Below are positions 8,954 to 48,642 of a stretch of 64,000 nucleotides of DNA, piece by piece (position 1 is the stretch's first letter; every line of letters starts with the position of its first letter). Source of the stretch: Patescibacteria group bacterium (lineage in GTDB: Bacteria; Patescibacteriota; Minisyncoccia; Phycocordibacterales; EsbW-18). The notes below the pieces were generated by a model. That model did not search any database, was not told where the DNA came from, and saw nothing but the letters and a program-made list of their open reading frames with translations. The translations under genes and the position numbers were made by a program. Location of the stretch: the NCBI GenBank assembly GCA_038064475.1, contig JBBTTA010000001.1, positions 111,086 to 175,085 of the forward strand, read 5' to 3'.

Positions 8954-9121
8954 AGTTTTATATTGTTGCGGGACACTGGATTTTTGAATCCTCTCTTTGT
9001 ATTGACCGGTAAAGTGAGCATATCACAGGTATATGACTCGCGCAGTGCGACGGCACGAGCGGGAGTGCCGTTCTAGCAAGAACGGACACGTGTCATATGC
9101 CGGTGAGTATGCGAACGAATG

Positions 9122-9192
9122 TTGCGGGACTTGGATTCGAACCAAGATACCCTCCTCCAAAGGGAGGTGTCCTACCATTAGACGATCCCGCA
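9122..9192 (-). tRNA. tRNA-Gln (anticodon TTG)
   Basis: On the minus strand a cloverleaf can be drawn: acceptor TGCGGGA/TCCCGCA, anticodon stem CCTCC/GGAGG with loop CTTTGGA, and T-arm CTTGG-TTCGAAT-CCAAG. Confidence 0.85.
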
Positions 9193-21839: not shown

Positions 21840-21935
21840 GTGTTCAGTGTAGCAAAATGAAACGCTCACGTCAGTGTGGAGATTCTGGGGATGTCTTATC
21901 GTACGAGCAGTTTTCTGCTAGAATCAATCCGAAAT

Positions 21936-22016
21936 GCCGGAGTGGCGGAATGGTATACGCGCACGACTCAAAATCGTGTCTCGAAAGGGATGAGGGTTCG
22001 AGTCCCTCCTCCGGCA
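21936..22016 (+). tRNA. tRNA-Leu (anticodon CAA), class II with a long variable arm
   Basis: A cloverleaf can be drawn: acceptor GCCGGAG/CTCCGGC, anticodon loop CTCAAAA, variable arm TCTCGAAAGGGAT and T-arm GAGGG-TTCGAGT-CCCTC. Confidence 0.9.
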
Positions 22017-22027
22017 CAAAGACAGTT

Positions 22028-22063
22028 GAGGCGGACGCATAGCGTCCGCCGATTACTGATTTT
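22028..22063 (+). terminator. terminator after tRNA-Leu(CAA)
   Basis: The hairpin gcggacgc-ata-gcgtccgc is followed by gattactgatttt. Confidence 0.6.
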
Positions 22064-22064
22064 C

Positions 22065-22187
22065 GCCGGAGGAGGGACTCGAAGGCGAATGCGGGCACCT
22101 TGTCAGCAGACAAGGTCGCATGAGCAGGGCCGAGCGGAGTAAGGAGCGACGGCGACGAACGAGCGCTTGGCCGAGTCCCGACGACTC
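22065..22187. repeat. tRNA-Leu 3'-flank structured element, copy 1 of 3
   Basis: It starts with gccggaggagggactcgaa, the exact reverse complement of this tRNA's T-arm and acceptor 3' half. A conserved GC-rich core follows (cgaatgcgggcaccttgtcagcagacaaggtcgcatgagcagg...gagcgacggcgacgaa). It ends with cgagtccc, which pairs with gggactcg in the first segment. Confidence 0.5.
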
Positions 22188-22201
22188 TTACCTACACCTT
22201 T

Positions 22202-23095
22202 ATGAAACCAAAAATCCTCGTCATCCTAGGGCCTACAGCTACGGGCAAAAGTGATATTGCGGTCCACCTTGCGAAAAAATTCGATGGGGAAGTCGTGTCC
22301 GCTGATTCACGGCAGGTATATCGCGGACTTGATATTGGCAGTGGAAAAATAACAAAGCATGAGATGAAGGGCGTTACGCATCACATGCTTAATGTAGTGA
22401 GCCCAAAAAATACATACACTGCAGCTCGTTTTGCATATGACGCGAATCGTATAGTAGAAAAAATCCTTTCAAAGAAAAAGTTGCCGATTATTGTTGGCGG
22501 CACAGGCATGTATATTGATGCACTTGTTGATGGTGTTATGTTTCCAGAAGTTCCTCCCAATCCCCTCCTTCGTAAAAAATTTGAAAAGAAATCCACCGAA
22601 GACCTTTTCCGTCTTCTTAAGAAAAAAGATTCTGTCCGTGCCAAAACAATAGACAAACATAATCGTCGTCGACTTATTCGCGCACTTGAAATTGTTGCTC
22701 TACTCGGAAAAGTCCCCTCTCAAAAAAAGAAAAGTATTTTTACACCACTCCATATTGGATTATTACTTTCTGATAAGGAACTCCGCGCAAGAATCCACAC
22801 TCGCCTACTCGCCCGAATGAAAAAAGGAATGGCAAGGGAAGTCGCACACCTCAAAAAAAGTGGTGTCTCGTGGAAACGTTTCGCAGAACTCGGACTTGAG
22901 TATCGCTATGTCGCACTGTATCTCCAGAAAAAGATTTCAAAACAGGGGATGTTGGTGAAGCTTGAAACAGAAATCTGGCGCTATGCGAAACGACAAATGA
23001 CGTGGTTTACACCAAATAAAAAAATCAATTGGTTCCGTCCGACGAAAGATGCGCGAAACATTGAAAAAAAAGTGAAACAGTTCCTCACCACATAA
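22202..23095 (+). CDS. miaA: tRNA dimethylallyltransferase
   Basis: The P-loop is GPTATGKS and the SADSRQVYRGLDIGSGK motif is present. Confidence 0.9.
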   Translation: MKPKILVILGPTATGKSDIAVHLAKKFDGEVVSADSRQVYRGLDIGSGKITKHEMKGVTHHMLNVVSPKNTYTAARFAYDANRIVEKILSKKKLPIIVGGTGMYIDALVDGVMFPEVPPNPLLRKKFEKKSTEDLFRLLKKKDSVRAKTIDKHNRRRLIRALEIVALLGKVPSQKKKSIFTPLHIGLLLSDKELRARIHTRLLARMKKGMAREVAHLKKSGVSWKRFAELGLEYRYVALYLQKKISKQGMLVKLETEIWRYAKRQMTWFTPNKKINWFRPTKDARNIEKKVKQFLTT

Positions 23096-44670: not shown

Positions 44671-44753
44671 GCTGGGGTGGCGAAATGGTATACGCGACAG
44701 ACTTAAGATCTGTTGTCCGCAAGGACGTGAGGGTTCGATCCCCTCTCCCAGCA
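44671..44753 (+). tRNA. tRNA-Leu (anticodon TAA), class II
   Basis: Acceptor GCTGGGG/TCCCAGC (with one G-U pair), anticodon loop CTTAAGA, long variable arm and T-arm GAGGG-TTCGATC-CCCTC. Confidence 0.9.
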
Positions 44754-44766
44754 CTAAAATTGTTGA

Positions 44767-44799
44767 GACGAACACATGTGTTCGTCGATTACTATTTTT
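44767..44799 (+). terminator. terminator after tRNA-Leu(TAA)
   Basis: The palindrome gacgaacacatgtgttcgtc is followed by gattactattttt. Confidence 0.6.
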
Positions 44800-44919
44800 G
44801 CTGGGAGAGGGGATCGAAGGCGAGTGCGGGCGCCTTGTCAGCAGACAAGGTCGCATGAGCAGGACTGAGAGGAATGAGGAGCGACGGCGACGAATGAGCT
44901 CTTGGTCTGAGCCCCTCTC
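44800..44919. repeat. tRNA-Leu 3'-flank structured element, copy 2 of 3
   Basis: It starts with gctgggagaggggatcgaa, the exact reverse complement of this tRNA's 3' half. The core is about 90% identical to copy 1. It ends with cccctctc, which pairs with gagagggg in the first segment. Confidence 0.5.
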
Positions 44920-44968
44920 TTAAAATATAAATTGCGAATAGAGCGTTATTTTAGTAGGATACAAACAC

Positions 44969-45040
44969 CCATCCGTAGCTCAATGGTAGAGCAGCTCCCT
45001 CTTAAGGAGTTGGTTGTAGGTTCGACTCCTACCGGGTGGA
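44969..45040 (+). tRNA. tRNA-Lys (anticodon CTT)
   Basis: Acceptor CCATCCG/CGGGTGG, D-arm GCTC-AATGGTA-GAGC, anticodon loop CTCTTAA and T-arm GTAGG-TTCGACT-CCTAC. Confidence 0.85.
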
Positions 45041-45130
45041 CTTTCAAAGAAAGTCCTGCATATTAGAGTGTGCGGAGCACATTCTACTCCGGCAAGCTTT
45101 GCCTGATTCGCGTTCTGACGCGACAAAGCT

Positions 45131-45224
45131 TACCGGGTGGACAAGTGAGCCGGTATCGATGAGCTTGCTTATCGGAAACGGCGAGCGCGGACACTCGGTA
45201 TCCTATACCGGGTGGACAAGTGAG
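45131..45224 (+). repeat. two 19-nt direct repeats (taccgggtggacaagtgag) that copy the 3' end of tRNA-Lys; they resemble att-site remnants
   Basis: The 12-nt core taccgggtggac is present at the tRNA 3' end (45030..45041) and again at 45131..45149 and 45206..45224. Confidence 0.5.
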
Positions 45225-45246
45225 TTTTAGTCGCCTGCTCACGTTC

Positions 45247-45328
45247 GGGCGAGTGGCGAAATTGGTAGACGCGCCAGCCTTAGGAGCTGGTGGAGCAATC
45301 CTTGGAGGTTCGAGTCCTCTCTCGCCCA
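45247..45328 (+). tRNA. tRNA-Leu (anticodon TAG), class II
   Basis: Acceptor GGGCGAG/CTCGCCC, anticodon loop CTTAGGA, long variable arm and T-arm GGAGG-TTCGAGT-CCTCT. Confidence 0.9.
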
Positions 45329-45335
45329 CACATAC

Positions 45336-45368
45336 AAAAACAACGCCAGTTTATTGGCGTTGTTTTTG
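45336..45368 (+). terminator. terminator after tRNA-Leu(TAG)
   Basis: The hairpin aaaaacaacgcc-agtttatt-ggcgttgttttt is present. Confidence 0.6.
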
Positions 45369-45384
45369 TATGTGCTGACGAAAA

Positions 45385-45495
45385 CGAGAGAGGACTCGAA
45401 GGACGGAGCGGTGTTGCAGAAGCTTCTGCAACCGCGAGTCCGTGCCTAGCCCGAACCGAGCGACGGCGAGGTGAGAGGCGAAGGAGAGTCCTCTT
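45385..45495. repeat. tRNA-Leu 3'-flank structured element, copy 3 of 3 (the divergent member)
   Basis: It starts with cgagagaggactcgaa, the reverse complement of this tRNA's 3' half. It shares gagcgacggcga with the other copies. Its internal hairpin gttgcagaagcttctgcaac replaces the ccttgtcagcagacaagg hairpin of copies 1 and 2. It ends with gagtcctct, which pairs with agaggactc. Confidence 0.45.
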
Positions 45496-45656
45496 CCCTT
45501 TCAAGCCCCTGTTAAGCCTTTATTTTTGGCCATATAGCTTGACTTTTTGGGTGAAAGTGCTATAATCGTCGGCAGAGTTGGGAACGTGTGTTCCCTAAAG
45601 TTCTTCGTCAACCTAGAGTCAAAACAAACTTCCCTATTGGGAAAGGAGATACAAAA

Positions 45657-46757
45657 ATGCTCATCTGGTTCGCAATCGTAGTGCTTTTCGTAATCCTCGT
45701 CATCCTTGCCGGAAAACTCGGCTGGTTCATGACCGAGGTTCCCGAGGGCTCTATGAAGTTCGTAAAAGCTGGTGAGGATTACGTCCGTACAATCCTCAAC
45801 ATCAAGAACAAGACGATGGTCAGGAAGTTTGATCCAGCAACTGGAGTCGAAGAAGAAGTCATCGAAACTGGATTCAATCCACTGTCTTTGTCTCCTCTTC
45901 GTGTATTCGGTTTTCACTGGATCAGTTGGATGTGGCCTCTTCGGCGTCTGCATCGGTTTTCTTTGACTACGAACATTCTCATTACGGAAACCGAACAGGG
46001 TCAAAAGAAACTCCACGAGTGGGTGCAGACCAAGCCACACGACAACACCGACCGACTTGGTCTCATGATCCGATCATACTTCTTTTTGAAGGGGGTCGAG
46101 CTCAAGGGGCAGTTCAAGGTAGACGTCGTTGTGTTCGCTCTCATGGAGATCGTCAACCCGCGTCTTGCAGTCTTCGTGTACAATGCTGACTTCGTCAAGA
46201 TCTTGGGACCAGCAATCCTTTCTGGATATGCTGACAATGCCAAGACCAAAGACATCGTCCAGTTCACGAACCTGAAGAAAGGACGTGGGAGTAAGTTCGC
46301 ACAAGATGTTTGTGAGTATGTAAATACAGGCCGCAGAAGTAAGGTCGCAACCGAGAAAATCGAAAACGTATACGGCGTTCGACTTGTCGAGACGTTTGTA
46401 TACGAGTTCGACCAAGCAGATGCTGATCCCGAGGCTCTCAAGGCCGCACAGGCTCAGAAAGTTGCCGAGCTCCAAGCAAAGGCAACTATCACAAGAGCAA
46501 CGGGTCAAGCTGAAGCTCGAGTGATCGAAGCCAATGCAAAAGCCACCGAGCTCTCGTCGAACGTCAAAGCACTCGTCGAGGTTGGGGTTGATCCCAACGA
46601 AGCGATGCGTAGTTACGCGACCATCCGTTCGACAGAGAATGTTCCAAACCTTCAGACGTGGGTGCAAGGTGGCGGTGTGGTTCCGACAGTTTCTGTTGGC
46701 AATCCCACTTCCCCTTCCCCTTCGTCCAAGAACAAACCCAAGGAGACTCCCTCATGA
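45657..46757 (+). CDS. SPFH / band-7 (stomatin/HflK-like) domain membrane protein
   Basis: It has an N-terminal TM helix, a band-7 core and a coiled-coil, AQAQKVAELQAKATITRATGQAEARVIEANAKA. AAGGAG sits 8 nt upstream of the ATG. The region's GC is visibly elevated. Confidence 0.75.
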   Translation: MLIWFAIVVLFVILVILAGKLGWFMTEVPEGSMKFVKAGEDYVRTILNIKNKTMVRKFDPATGVEEEVIETGFNPLSLSPLRVFGFHWISWMWPLRRLHRFSLTTNILITETEQGQKKLHEWVQTKPHDNTDRLGLMIRSYFFLKGVELKGQFKVDVVVFALMEIVNPRLAVFVYNADFVKILGPAILSGYADNAKTKDIVQFTNLKKGRGSKFAQDVCEYVNTGRRSKVATEKIENVYGVRLVETFVYEFDQADADPEALKAAQAQKVAELQAKATITRATGQAEARVIEANAKATELSSNVKALVEVGVDPNEAMRSYATIRSTENVPNLQTWVQGGGVVPTVSVGNPTSPSPSSKNKPKETPS

Positions 46758-47815
46758 TGAAGCGATTTTTGTTTCGTGCGAAGCGTTTCGCACGCAAGTG
46801 CGATATCAGGCTTCGTCGGAGGTTTCGTTCATTCGCAACCTTCGTCACGGTTCAGCGACGACGTGTTGGTTCTCACCTTCGCGTCGTGGTTTGGCCGAGG
46901 CTCAAGCTTCGACTGAACCAATTCAGTGTCCTTCTCATCACGAGAGGTATCGTACCTATCAAGGCACACTACCTGAAACATCGACTGATGGTTGTGACTG
47001 CCTTTAAGTTCGTGCTGAAAATCACTGCGGTCATCGTAGTGCTTCTCATAGCACGCGCACAGGGGCTCTTCGGAGAGAGCCTTTCTTTGAGGGAGTATCG
47101 GTGGTGGATCCTTGGAGTGCTTGTTGCACTCTGTGTGGTTCTACTTTCCGTGCTCCTATATCGGAAAGGGGTTCGCCTCAAGAAGTTTTCACTTCCGGGT
47201 TCTGTGGGTGAGAGGTTCAGCTTCAAAGGCTTCCTCAAACTTGCTCTGCTTGTGTTCGTGATCTTCTTCTTCAAGGATGTCATCGTAGCTACGGCTGCGG
47301 GCATCTGGAGCATTCGTCCCACCGACGAGAATATCGCTCGTTGGGAGAAGGACAAGCGTGCTGCTGAAGAAGCGACACGCAAAGCTCGCAGAACGGATTG
47401 GCCGTGCACATACGACCTCTCGGAGTACGGCGGGAAGCACGTCGCTAACCACGACGCGAAGTTCCTCAAGCCGGACGATGGAGAGGCGTGGAAGGTCTGT
47501 TTCTATGACCGACGCAAGCCCGAGCCCCTCTCCAACCAGCAGTTGAATAACTTCTGGAAGGACACCTTCCCTACACTCGTCGGAGATTCTGCTGGCTGGG
47601 ATGTAATCGTGATCAAAAACCGTGACTTCAACACGAAGACGTGTATGGTCCGGGACAAGCACAACAACGCATACTACCGACAGCAGTTTCCGAAGGAGTC
47701 TGGCGAGGTTTCGATCGACATGGTCGACGAGTCTCGCCGGCTCGTCATCGGCGGGGACAGCAAGGAAGAGGCCGAGTCGGGTAAAATCCCGCAAGTGTTC
47801 ACAATTTCCTGTTAG
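46754..47815 (+). CDS. hypothetical membrane protein co-transcribed with the SPFH gene
   Basis: Its ATG overlaps the SPFH stop (ATGA). It has two or three TM helices centrally and a soluble C-terminal domain. Confidence 0.5.
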   Translation: MMKRFLFRAKRFARKCDIRLRRRFRSFATFVTVQRRRVGSHLRVVVWPRLKLRLNQFSVLLITRGIVPIKAHYLKHRLMVVTAFKFVLKITAVIVVLLIARAQGLFGESLSLREYRWWILGVLVALCVVLLSVLLYRKGVRLKKFSLPGSVGERFSFKGFLKLALLVFVIFFFKDVIVATAAGIWSIRPTDENIARWEKDKRAAEEATRKARRTDWPCTYDLSEYGGKHVANHDAKFLKPDDGEAWKVCFYDRRKPEPLSNQQLNNFWKDTFPTLVGDSAGWDVIVIKNRDFNTKTCMVRDKHNNAYYRQQFPKESGEVSIDMVDESRRLVIGGDSKEEAESGKIPQVFTISC

Positions 47816-47834
47816 ACTCAAGGTTGAAATTCCA

Positions 47835-47870
47835 GAGGCGACGCCACAAGCGTCGCCTCTTTTCTTTTTT
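47835..47870 (+). terminator. rho-independent terminator
   Basis: The hairpin gaggcgacgc-cacaa-gcgtcgcctc is followed by ttttctttttt. Confidence 0.75.
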
Positions 47871-47920
47871 ATACATAACAAAACACCCCCTACACACCAC
47901 CATAGTGGTGTCGGGCGAAC

Positions 47921-47945
47921 AAAAACCACCAGTAGGTGGTTTTTG
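47921..47945. terminator. bidirectional terminator
   Basis: The hairpin aaaaaccacc-agta-ggtggttttt is present. Confidence 0.6.
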
Positions 47946-47968
47946 TTTTAGCCGGCAAGTTTTTGTTT

Positions 47969-48277
47969 TTAGATTCCGCCTTCAACTTGCGGCTCTATCT
48001 GTTCGTTTATTGAAGGTAGAGGCTCGTTACTTCCTATAGTCCCATGAATGATACGGATGATGCCAAACACTGACACCATGATGACCATGCCAATGATTCC
48101 ATAAAGCATATTCCTCTTCCCTGTTGCACGCTCACCTTCGTCATCAACATTCTTTATGAACTGGAATATTCCGTAAATGAAGAGGAGAAATGCAACAGCA
48201 AAAAGCAACATGATGACCGGACGCACGATGACATCATACAGTCGCGTCAAAAGTCCATTAACGGTCATTGGCTCCAT
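47969..48277 (-). CDS. small two-helix membrane protein, pilin-like paralog 1 (TrbC/VirB2-like architecture)
   Basis: 102 aa. The core LLFIYGIFQFIKNVDDEGERATGKRNMLYGIIGMVIMVSVFGIIRII is shared with the five upstream ORFs. Confidence 0.55.
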   Translation of the reverse strand: MEPMTVNGLLTRLYDVIVRPVIMLLFAVAFLLFIYGIFQFIKNVDDEGERATGKRNMLYGIIGMVIMVSVFGIIRIIHGTIGSNEPLPSINEQIEPQVEGGI

Positions 48278-48291
48278 GAACTGAAATATAG

Positions 48292-48642
48292 TTAGTTTCC
48301 TTCAACACCAGGAACTGGTAGTGACCCACCTTGATCAACACCAACCGCGTCACCAATCCATCGGATGATACCAACGATAGAAACGATAACGAAGAGTGCA
48401 ATGATACCTCCGATCATGAGGTTTTTACCTTGTTCTTTTGCTTCGTCACTACCTGAAGCGAAGATAAACTTCACCAAACCCCAGAAGAAAACAAGGAGAG
48501 CGATACCGACAACGATAGGTGTTGCAAGATCAACCAACCGGCCGATCGCTTCAACAATGTTCTCCACATTACCCAACTGTGCGTGTGCAAATGCTGGCAC
48601 AAATGCCGCAGCCGCAAGCGCGATAAGACCAATTCTTTTCAT
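48292..48642 (-). CDS. pilin-like small membrane protein, paralog 2
   Basis: 116 aa with a signal peptide ending AFAHA, then a hydrophobic helix, the loop GSDEAKEQGKN and a second helix IGGIIALFVIVSIVGIIRWI. Confidence 0.55.
   Translation of the reverse strand: MKRIGLIALAAAAFVPAFAHAQLGNVENIVEAIGRLVDLATPIVVGIALLVFFWGLVKFIFASGSDEAKEQGKNLMIGGIIALFVIVSIVGIIRWIGDAVGVDQGGSLPVPGVEGN

Follow-up and report, generated by a model that had tools for sequence, protein, structure and literature searches.

A structured element with tRNA-matched flanks behind tRNA and tmRNA genes of Patescibacteria

The stretch analysed here (the window) is a 64-kb segment of a Patescibacteria group bacterium (contig JBBTTA010000001.1, positions 111,086 to 175,085). 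It contains six tRNA genes, on which ARAGORN and Rfam agree, and three of these, all on the + strand, are tRNA-Leu genes. Each tRNA-Leu gene is followed by a unit of about 200 bases that contains no protein gene and whose flanks match the tRNA it follows.

Units behind the tRNA-Leu genes of the window

We denote the tRNA segment concerned as X, its reverse complement downstream as X', and the direct repeat distal to the core as X_right. Behind all three tRNA-Leu genes, the order is a hairpin 3' of the gene, X', a GC-rich core, and X_right (Table 1). X' is 16–20 nt long and is the exact reverse complement of its own tRNA from the T-loop to the acceptor 3' strand, and X_right (8–9 nt) repeats the T-arm of the same tRNA and pairs with X' to form a closing stem, P1. 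X' is followed by GG and then by the core of about 90 nt, which carries an invariant dodecamer, GAGCGACGGCGA; this occurs exactly three times in the 64 kb, once per copy, where 0.35 occurrences would be expected at up to one mismatch. The common layout described in the original prediction is confirmed by the tRNA calls, the repeats, and the dodecamer counts, and is non-random.

In copy 1, the inverted repeat extends over 24 nt at 92% identity (21997–22020 with 22060–22083), with 19 nt (GCCGGAGGAGGGACTCGAA) exact, and its trailer hairpin differs from that of copy 2 by compensatory changes in the stem. The cores of copies 1 and 2 both belong to subtype A and are closely similar, as had been noted, although the computed identity is ~85% over 92 nt rather than the ~90% first given. 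The core of copy 3 represents a separate subtype, B, and further core types include a GAGCGAAGCGAA type and short types (loci L127, L131, and L133). The internal hairpin does keep its position while changing its sequence between copies. A trailer hairpin is also present in each copy, but only that of copy 2 scores as terminator-like in a consensus scan, whereas a terminator had been proposed for all three.

Table 1. Positions in the window of the tRNA genes, unit parts, and probable remnants
Feature	Positions	Strand	Description
tRNA-Leu(CAA)	21936–22016	+	ARAGORN, Rfam; X = TTCGAGTCCCTCCTCCGGC, tRNA positions 54–72, at 21997–22015
Copy 1 trailer	22017–22064	+	A-rich run, hairpin GGCGGACGC-ATA-GCGTCCGCC at 22030–22050, T-rich GATTACTGATTTTC
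Copy 1 X' = GCCGGAGGAGGGACTCGAA	22065–22083	+	Exact reverse complement of tRNA 54–72, 0/19 mismatches
Copy 1 core, subtype A	22084–22171	+	P2 22097–22116; P3 with GAGCGACGGCGA 22144–22155; covariance model 135.8 bits
Copy 1 X_right = CGAGTCCC	22172–22179	+	Direct repeat of tRNA 56–63; closing stem P1, 22074–22081 with 22172–22179
tRNA-Leu(TAA)	44671–44753	+	ARAGORN, Rfam; X at 44734–44752
Copy 2 trailer	44754–44798	+	Hairpin 44767–44786, T-rich GATTACTATTTTT
Copy 2 X' = TGCTGGGAGAGGGGATCGAA	44799–44818	+	Pairs with 44734–44753, tRNA 54–73; 20 nt, 100%
Copy 2 core, subtype A	44819–44908	+	P2 44833–44850; GAGCGACGGCGA 44879–44890; covariance model 124.2 bits
Copy 2 X_right / P1 3' strand	44909–44919	+	CCCCTCTC at 44912–44919 = tRNA repeat; closing stem P1, 44805–44815 with 44909–44919
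tRNA-Leu(TAG)	45247–45328	+	ARAGORN, Rfam; X at 45309–45327
Copy 3 long hairpin	45322–45381	+	Arms 27 nt; overlaps tRNA 3' end
Copy 3 X' = CGAGAGAGGACTCGAA	45385–45400	+	Exact complement of 45309–45324, tRNA 54–69, 16 nt
Copy 3 core, subtype B	45401–45485	+	P2 45413–45432; GAGCGACGGCGA 45458–45469; covariance model 86.3 bits
Copy 3 X_right = GAGTCCTCT	45486–45494	+	T-arm direct repeat, P1 3' strand; closing stem, 45382–45397 with 45486–45501
tRNA-Lys 3' end and trailer	45030–45224	+	Direct repeats of TACCGGGTGGAC start at 45030, 45131, 45206
tRNA-Gln	9122–9192	-	3' end GTCCCGCAAC directly repeated at 8965–8974, 150 nt downstream

Core fold and tRNA-matched flanks

Each unit alone folds as a three-way junction of P1 and two further arms, P2 and P3. 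On the + strand, the folds of the three window copies have z-scores of -4.9 to -5.5; on the - strand, copies 1 and 2 score -2.2 and -2.5, and copy 3 scores -5.0. Among 67 aligned copies (alignment A3), 90.5% of cells are standard pairs, versus 72% in shuffled and 32–39% in slid controls, double-sided changes occur in 32 of the 36 pairs, and the covariation score is 0.561, compared with 0.215 (shuffled) and ~0.09 (slid). Two P3 pairs (columns 83/172 and 84/171) switch between G-U and A-U (34/28 and 24/35, respectively). Because this alternation would produce A-C mismatches on the opposite strand, folding is assigned to the tRNA-sense strand; the G-U (G-T) pattern is compatible with either RNA or single-stranded DNA. 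Invariant among the unpaired bases are GAAGG, which follows X', and the GAGCGACGGCGA tip, itself able to form tandem G-A pairs. That the core is a conserved structured RNA-type fold, with compensatory changes beyond both controls, is well supported, and the earlier statement that the element does not look like a passive repeat stands.

When complete, P1 is an acceptor/T-stem minihelix identical to that of the neighbouring tRNA; many copies retain merely 8–10 bp of it. The acceptor/T minihelix is the shape recognised by RNase P, RNase Z, and the CCA-adding enzyme. Some units carry additional hairpins: a small one (e.g. AAGCTGTAATCAGCGG) interrupts X_right between T-loop positions 58 and 59 in L002, L036, L040, and L081, and type-B units often have one within X', between its acceptor and T parts (L031, the tRNA-Cys unit of L032, L044, L070, and L090). 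Insertions in P3 are the largest at 30–50 nt (L070, L062), and one L070 copy has 48 nt. A coding frame (ERRRR-type) through GAGCGACGGCGA was rejected, being short and unconserved between copies. A preliminary by-eye comparison with the hammerhead, hepatitis delta virus (HDV)-like, and twister-sister ribozymes, signal recognition particle (SRP) domain IV, group II domain V, box C/D, and the K-turn suggested that junction lengths and conserved bases do not fit.

The inverted repeats X/X' and X'/X_right have a different sequence at each locus, in every case that of the neighbouring tRNA. The direct repeat is anchored at T-loop position 56 and runs to the tRNA end, sometimes on into the trailer of a previous unit, giving lengths of 8 to more than 30 nt; it starts at position 56 even where the T-loop reads GTCAGCA (L101), and in L127 it stops at the tRNA end. 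Agreement between flank and tRNA also holds for orthologous and sister copies. A T-loop change in L131 is mirrored in both X' and X_right, and two tRNA-Gly units in L081, whose sequence is the same all the way from the T-part of X' to the end of the core, differ at four acceptor bases exactly as their two tRNAs do.

Several observations point to X' traveling with its unit and not being copied anew from each target. An L127 unit adjoining its tRNA has an X' with three mismatches to that tRNA, a variant GAGAA in place of TCGAA recurs in X' at tRNAs for Leu, Tyr, and Gln, and a one-base bulge in X' is common to both Gly units of L081. X' thus appears to be inherited with the unit; re-templating of X' at each insertion, which we considered, is opposed by the tRNA-proximal L127 unit and the lineage-common variants. 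The GAGAA variant occurs in L013, L028, L032, L072, L079, L098, L099, L103, L121, and L127, and would place tandem G-A pairs in P1, opposite G57 and A58. The flanks also decay: in the acceptor part of 40 anchored copies, mismatches average 2.3 of 7 in X' and 3.1 in X_right, and both acceptor parts are intact in four.

Within one genome (L015/L030), cores are 96–98% identical, trailer hairpins ~85% identical, and flanks unrelated, from which we conclude that exchange or homogenisation proceeds faster in cores than in the remaining parts of the unit. Core identity within a genome is accordingly weakened as proof of recent transposition.

Host genes, occupancy, and turnover

A core-pattern scan of 185,579 species genomes returned 45 loci, of which about 16 are real, every one of them in Patescibacteria (the candidate phyla radiation, CPR); the others are chance matches in GC-rich coding DNA. 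The groups with real loci are Saccharibacteria, Kaiserbacteria, Nomurabacteria, Paceibacteria, and Minisyncoccia. With a covariance model based on 19 copies, 22 copies were detected in the genome-scan loci and the window and 69 more in loci from a metagenome scan, for a total of ~90 copies in Patescibacteria genomes and metagenomes.

Among 69 distinct copies, 54 sit 16–65 nt 3' of a tRNA on the same strand, and these tRNAs represent 14 amino-acid classes: Leu (21 copies, four anticodons), Ser (7), Gly (5), Tyr, His, Trp, Asp, and Glu (3 each), Met, Cys, and Lys (2 each), and Val, Pro, and Ala (1 each). Every host tRNA was called intact. In L080 (8027–8580, - strand) the host is a tmRNA gene (100.8 bits); the unit is 32 nt downstream, and its X' matches the tmRNA 3' end. 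The flanks at each copy, complement and repeat alike, match their own neighbour across ~20 tRNA species and tmRNA, which bears out the proposed tracking of the adjacent gene. The original prediction had also tied the element to tRNA-Leu, and this specificity is refuted on its own terms by the same core beside non-Leu tRNAs. In a test restricted to the non-conserved tRNA positions 59–72, 57 of 120 distinct tRNAs in these loci have at least 9 nt copied downstream, in inverted or direct orientation, compared with 0–1 upstream.

Some loci contain additional features. X_right in L080 is followed by a second hairpin and a short piece of X', and then by a small hairpin and a piece of X, a stretch that looks like a unit minus its core. 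Two units without a called tRNA, in L091 and L108, have a common conserved stretch (GAGCGTACGATTT..AGCCACCACGC..GCGTGC.., then GGTTCGAGC/GGTGCGAGC..) on their upstream side, before 324 in L091 and before 142 in oriented L108, with no Rfam match, which may be an unrecognised RNA gene or gene end acting as host. In L090, a LOOT RNA (RF03000, 72.7 bits; 332–449, - strand) lies ~900 nt from the unit on the same contig.

Orthologous tRNAs are occupied sporadically. In the Cys-Leu(TAA)-Lys-Leu(TAG) cluster, units occur at differing members in the window, L028, L032, L072, and L098; the Cys-Leu-Lys-Leu cluster of L108 has none, and its spacers are 19–40 nt. Relatives of the window organism, found via MiaA (61–75% identity), have the gene order relA-parB-tRNA-Leu(CAA)-unit-miaA-tRNA-Ser(GGA) in L127, L129, L131, and L133; the window is without that tRNA-Ser. 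The tRNA-Leu(CAA) of the relatives is identical or differs by one T-loop base, and their units differ in subtype. All four MiaA-linked relatives are occupied, and none provides an exact empty/filled pair for the loci of the window itself.

Two of these relatives, L127 and L129, have an identical tRNA-Leu(CAA), and L127 has one more unit, the one adjoining the tRNA. Its X_right is complete and continues into the trailer that directly follows the tRNA in L129. This is a presence/absence difference, for which insertion in L127 and deletion in L129 give the same outcome. Tandem arrays occur behind single tRNAs, with the order A-B-A at a tRNA-Cys in L070 (oriented 2265–2941) and B-A in L003 (1–325), and in L030 and L031 the intact units are followed distally by older, truncated 3' ends. 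The arrays, the decayed copies, and the L127/L129 difference show turnover by gain or loss.

Decay is also seen in the window. The original prediction described tRNA-Lys as having no element, but its trailer holds direct repeats of the tRNA 3' end, the downstream ones also carrying AAGTGAG, and a decayed subtype-A remnant (45150–45205) with CCGGTA, the hairpin loop motif TCGATGAGC, and the type-A core start GGCGAGCGCGGACAC; this remnant was recognised by eye and not scored by the covariance model. The repeated 3' end of tRNA-Gln (two matches versus 0.10 expected) comes straight after GGATTC-AAAAA-AATCC and is probably a core-less remnant of the process that left the units. The tally for the window is thus intact units at three of six tRNA genes and probable by-eye remnants at two more.

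The surroundings suggest that units are transcribed together with their tRNAs. In L032 the next tRNA of the operon starts 5 nt past X_right. In the window, the miaA start codon is 22 nt beyond X_right of copy 1, and no promoter-like site was found between tRNA-Leu(CAA) and the miaA ATG (21869–22202), the gap between copy 1 and miaA included; therefore tRNA, unit, and miaA probably form one transcript. tRNA-Leu(CAA) is a substrate of MiaA. From these arrangements, the unit would have to be transcribed at least sometimes, with read-through of the trailer hairpin in L032 and ahead of miaA. When tRNA and unit are folded as a single RNA, a 20-bp X:X' hairpin is predicted to displace the acceptor and T arms of the tRNA. 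Read-through transcripts would therefore rely on co-transcriptional folding, or on X_right occupying X'.

According to Pfam, the genes neighbouring the window copies encode IF-2, an aminotransferase, ClpB, ParB, MiaA, T4SS pilins, and proteins of unassigned function. Two open reading frames (ORFs; 366 and 385 aa, no Pfam match) and then two T4SS-pilin genes lie 3' of copy 3 (45657–48640). GC content is 0.52 at 46–48 kb versus ~0.45 elsewhere in the window, and this segment adjoining tRNA-Leu(TAG) may be foreign.

Possible origin and function

No recombinase, transposase, or reverse-transcriptase family, and no tnpA, tnpB, or iscB ORF family, recurs within 4 kb of ~80 copies, where all-against-all clustering of the ORFs grouped only syntenic housekeeping genes. 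Pfam likewise gave no integrase, recombinase, or reverse transcriptase among the window neighbours. Across ~90 copies there is no ORF inside the units or between tRNA and core, and no cargo-bearing or autonomous version. Rfam 15, searched at the gathering score and at E-values up to 10, returned tRNAs and chance miRNA-type hairpin matches on the X:X' palindrome alone, in line with the earlier remark that the family was not recognised; that the element is a candidate RNA family absent from Rfam 15 is well supported. A scan of IMG/VR viral contigs with the core motif yielded 13 loci, none real by the covariance model, and neither GenBank phages nor PLSDB plasmids were matched by blastn. A full-text literature search found no paper describing the element. 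Alignments A2 and A3 contain no constant R-box (GTTRRRY) or dif-like motif, and their stems consist of local tRNA sequence.

We favour, at what we judge to be an even chance, the reading that the units are integrative cassettes, miniature and non-autonomous, whose specificity is for the T-loop/3' end of Patescibacteria tRNA and tmRNA genes. It is based on topology: X-trailer-hairpin-X'-core-X exceeds one unit length of a circle that has integrated through a crossover in X, as is left behind by elements that enter tRNA and tmRNA genes and supply them with a new 3' end. The cassette would consist of X (position 56 to the 3' end), an A-rich trailer, a hairpin, a T-rich run, X' (the complement of 54–72), and the three-way-junction core, and would recombine into the gene within its T-loop/3' end. 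The gene would then end with the cassette's own copy of X and remain functional, and the original 3' end would be displaced and left distal to the core as X_right. Repeated entry would build tandem arrays in which old units decay. Co-transcribed with the tRNA, X' and X_right (P1) on the tRNA-sense strand would close the P2/P3 fold and sequester X', and the cassettes would be under selection for this self-folding. The route may be a Campbell-type circle or a double crossover of imported DNA, and the putative enzyme a trans-acting recombinase that acts on a T-arm-like stem, or else homologous recombination with the tRNA and X_right as arms. Among the three explanations offered originally, that of an integrative element comes nearest, but the units are intact rather than remnants, and no integrase is present.

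Several points weigh against this reading. A 200-nt unit cannot encode a recombinase, and none recurs around the copies. An att-type model by itself has no need of X' and leaves unexplained how one core family has the correct 3' ends for ~20 tRNAs. The combination of near-identical cores, unrelated flanks, and more diverged hairpins within one genome (L015/L030, L081) agrees equally well with gene conversion between units resident for a long time and with recent movement. All five relatives examined hold some unit at tRNA-Leu(CAA), which fits a useful host function too. Neither an excised circle nor an exact empty/filled pair within one population was seen, and the L127/L129 difference could be a deletion between direct repeats instead of an insertion.

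Some of these points would be accommodated if the unit were a cis-acting RNA module of the host, selected on tRNA/tmRNA transcripts, homogenised by gene conversion, and not mobile, an alternative we regard as fairly unlikely. It might serve as a signal for 3' processing or punctuation, insulate transcription, or be an antisense trap governing the extent to which read-through precursors mature. The covarying fold on the tRNA-sense strand, transcription within polycistronic precursors (L032) and ahead of miaA, flanks that are locally matched inside otherwise homogenised units (L081, L131), and the mimicry of the acceptor/T minihelix by a complete P1 are all consistent with such a module, as is the retention of a unit at tRNA-Leu(CAA) in the five relatives; moreover, because the X:X' hairpin outcompetes the tRNA arms in predicted folds, X' could act on the tRNA. 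However, occupancy is sporadic, with whole clusters lacking a unit (L108, L028), decayed or truncated copies are common, core subtypes replace each other at one site, and the tandem arrays have no obvious use. The mismatches in the acceptor part of X' also indicate that pairing with the tRNA is not strictly maintained. The antisense or processing role suggested in the original prediction is possible but fits poorly with the sporadic occupancy of orthologous tRNAs and the decayed copies. Rather unlikely, in our estimate, is a homing element directed by a guide or by structure on single-stranded DNA or RNA, in which X' would pick its target by pairing with the 3' half of the tRNA gene or would rebuild a T-arm-like stem. 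Candidate enzymes would be an HUH Y1 transposase, an integron- or Xer-like recombinase, or an RNA-guided nuclease or recombinase, and the excised form would be a Y-shaped single-stranded circle of ~230 nt. Such homing would account for the strand-specific conservation of structure, an X' that is unit-borne and complementary to the target, a junction fixed at tRNA 55/56 irrespective of T-loop sequence (L101), the inclusion of tmRNA among the hosts, and the absence of a cis-encoded protein, and a circular X-trailer-hairpin-X'-core-X unit would fold as three hairpin arms. Against it, no candidate enzyme and no Rfam guide-RNA or IS605-related match was found, no circular junction was observed, P1 would sequester the guide, and the 18–19 nt direct repeat is unlike the product of IS200/IS605 peel-and-paste transposition unless the unit carries X. 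A more specific version, which we consider doubtful, is a protein-less ~230-nt single-stranded circle of DNA or RNA moved by host or trans-acting enzymes only; the long arm of the Y, the tRNA 3' half paired to its own antisense, would direct insertion at the T-loop and regenerate the gene 3' end.

Two further explanations fit less of the evidence. Passive attL/attR scars, left by integrase-mediated prophage or island integration after deletion of the element, would explain T-loop-starting direct repeats of the tRNA 3' end, a tmRNA host, and serial copies, which, in a 2002 Nucleic Acids Res article by Williams, are reportedly the signature of tRNA-targeting integrases. We find this improbable, as scars would not conserve a core, and the same ~95-nt core with compensatory changes is found at ~20 tRNA kinds in several CPR classes; furthermore, integrase or phage genes are not adjacent, the viral, phage, and plasmid searches gave no match, and att recombination does not yield an inverted copy such as X'. 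Highly improbable, finally, is a retroelement-like RNA, as had also been suggested, in which X' would be the primer-binding site for the cognate tRNA or the unit a retron-like msr/msd RNA. Retroviral primer-binding sites are complementary to the tRNA 3' region, and retron RNAs form a junction with terminal repeats; by analogy, the complement of 16–20 nt of the tRNA 3' end may recall the former, and the three-way junction closed by terminal repeats the latter. Yet X' lacks the complement of CCA and often that of the discriminator, continuing instead into the complement of the genomic trailer, in copy 3 it ends 3 nt short of the acceptor end, and no reverse-transcriptase ORF is adjacent in ~80 loci, so this suggestion fails.

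The putative cassettes can be compared to several known systems. Tyrosine-integrase islands and prophages reportedly occupy tRNA and tmRNA genes, with a T-loop sublocation class described in the same article by Williams. The element resembles these in its host genes (tmRNA included), in lying 3' of a gene that is kept intact by a replacement 3' end, in its direct repeat from the T-loop to the gene end, and in serial or tandem occupation. It differs in being ~200 nt rather than kilobases long, in lacking an integrase or any ORF, in its internal inverted copy of the att segment and covarying fold, and in the use of ~20 tRNA kinds by one family. Like the CTX phage attP(+) site used by XerCD and the integron attC site, the unit has an element-borne inverted repeat that can fold one strand into a target-mimicking duplex, shows strand-specific conservation of structure, and would need no recombinase gene within the mobile unit; unlike them, it has no dif-like motif or R-box, its target is a tRNA 3' half, and its stem differs per locus.

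Correia, RPE, and REP/BIME repeats and IS200/IS605 PATEs are similarly small, non-coding, multi-copy, strongly folded, and co-transcribed with neighbours. In contrast to these palindromic repeats and to MITEs (miniature transposable elements with inverted repeats), the unit has inverted repeats that derive from the neighbouring gene and vary per locus, lacks constant terminal inverted repeats or a short fixed target duplication, and is found strictly behind tRNA/tmRNA genes. As in mascRNA (MALAT1), viral tRNA-like structures, and mitochondrial tRNA punctuation, the P1 minihelix might in principle be cut by RNase P/Z, but a 90-nt two-arm core takes the place of the T-loop, and many P1 stems have only 8–10 bp. 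The element may be a variant of the tRNA-gene-targeting integrative elements, or possibly further removed from them.

Patescibacteria have streamlined genomes of ~1 Mb, and yet half of the tRNA genes in the window carry a unit. A non-coding element confined to the 3' ends of tRNA and tmRNA genes, rebuilding them and retaining a covarying fold, would represent a new way to exploit the most conserved genes. If mobile, these units would mark recombination in an uncultured radiation and could lead to a T-arm-specific recombination activity or to guide-like targeting; if they serve the host, they would reveal a hitherto unrecognised level at which tRNA transcripts are handled. Either way, they bear on the annotation of tRNA flanks and of 'intergenic' RNA motifs in CPR genomes.

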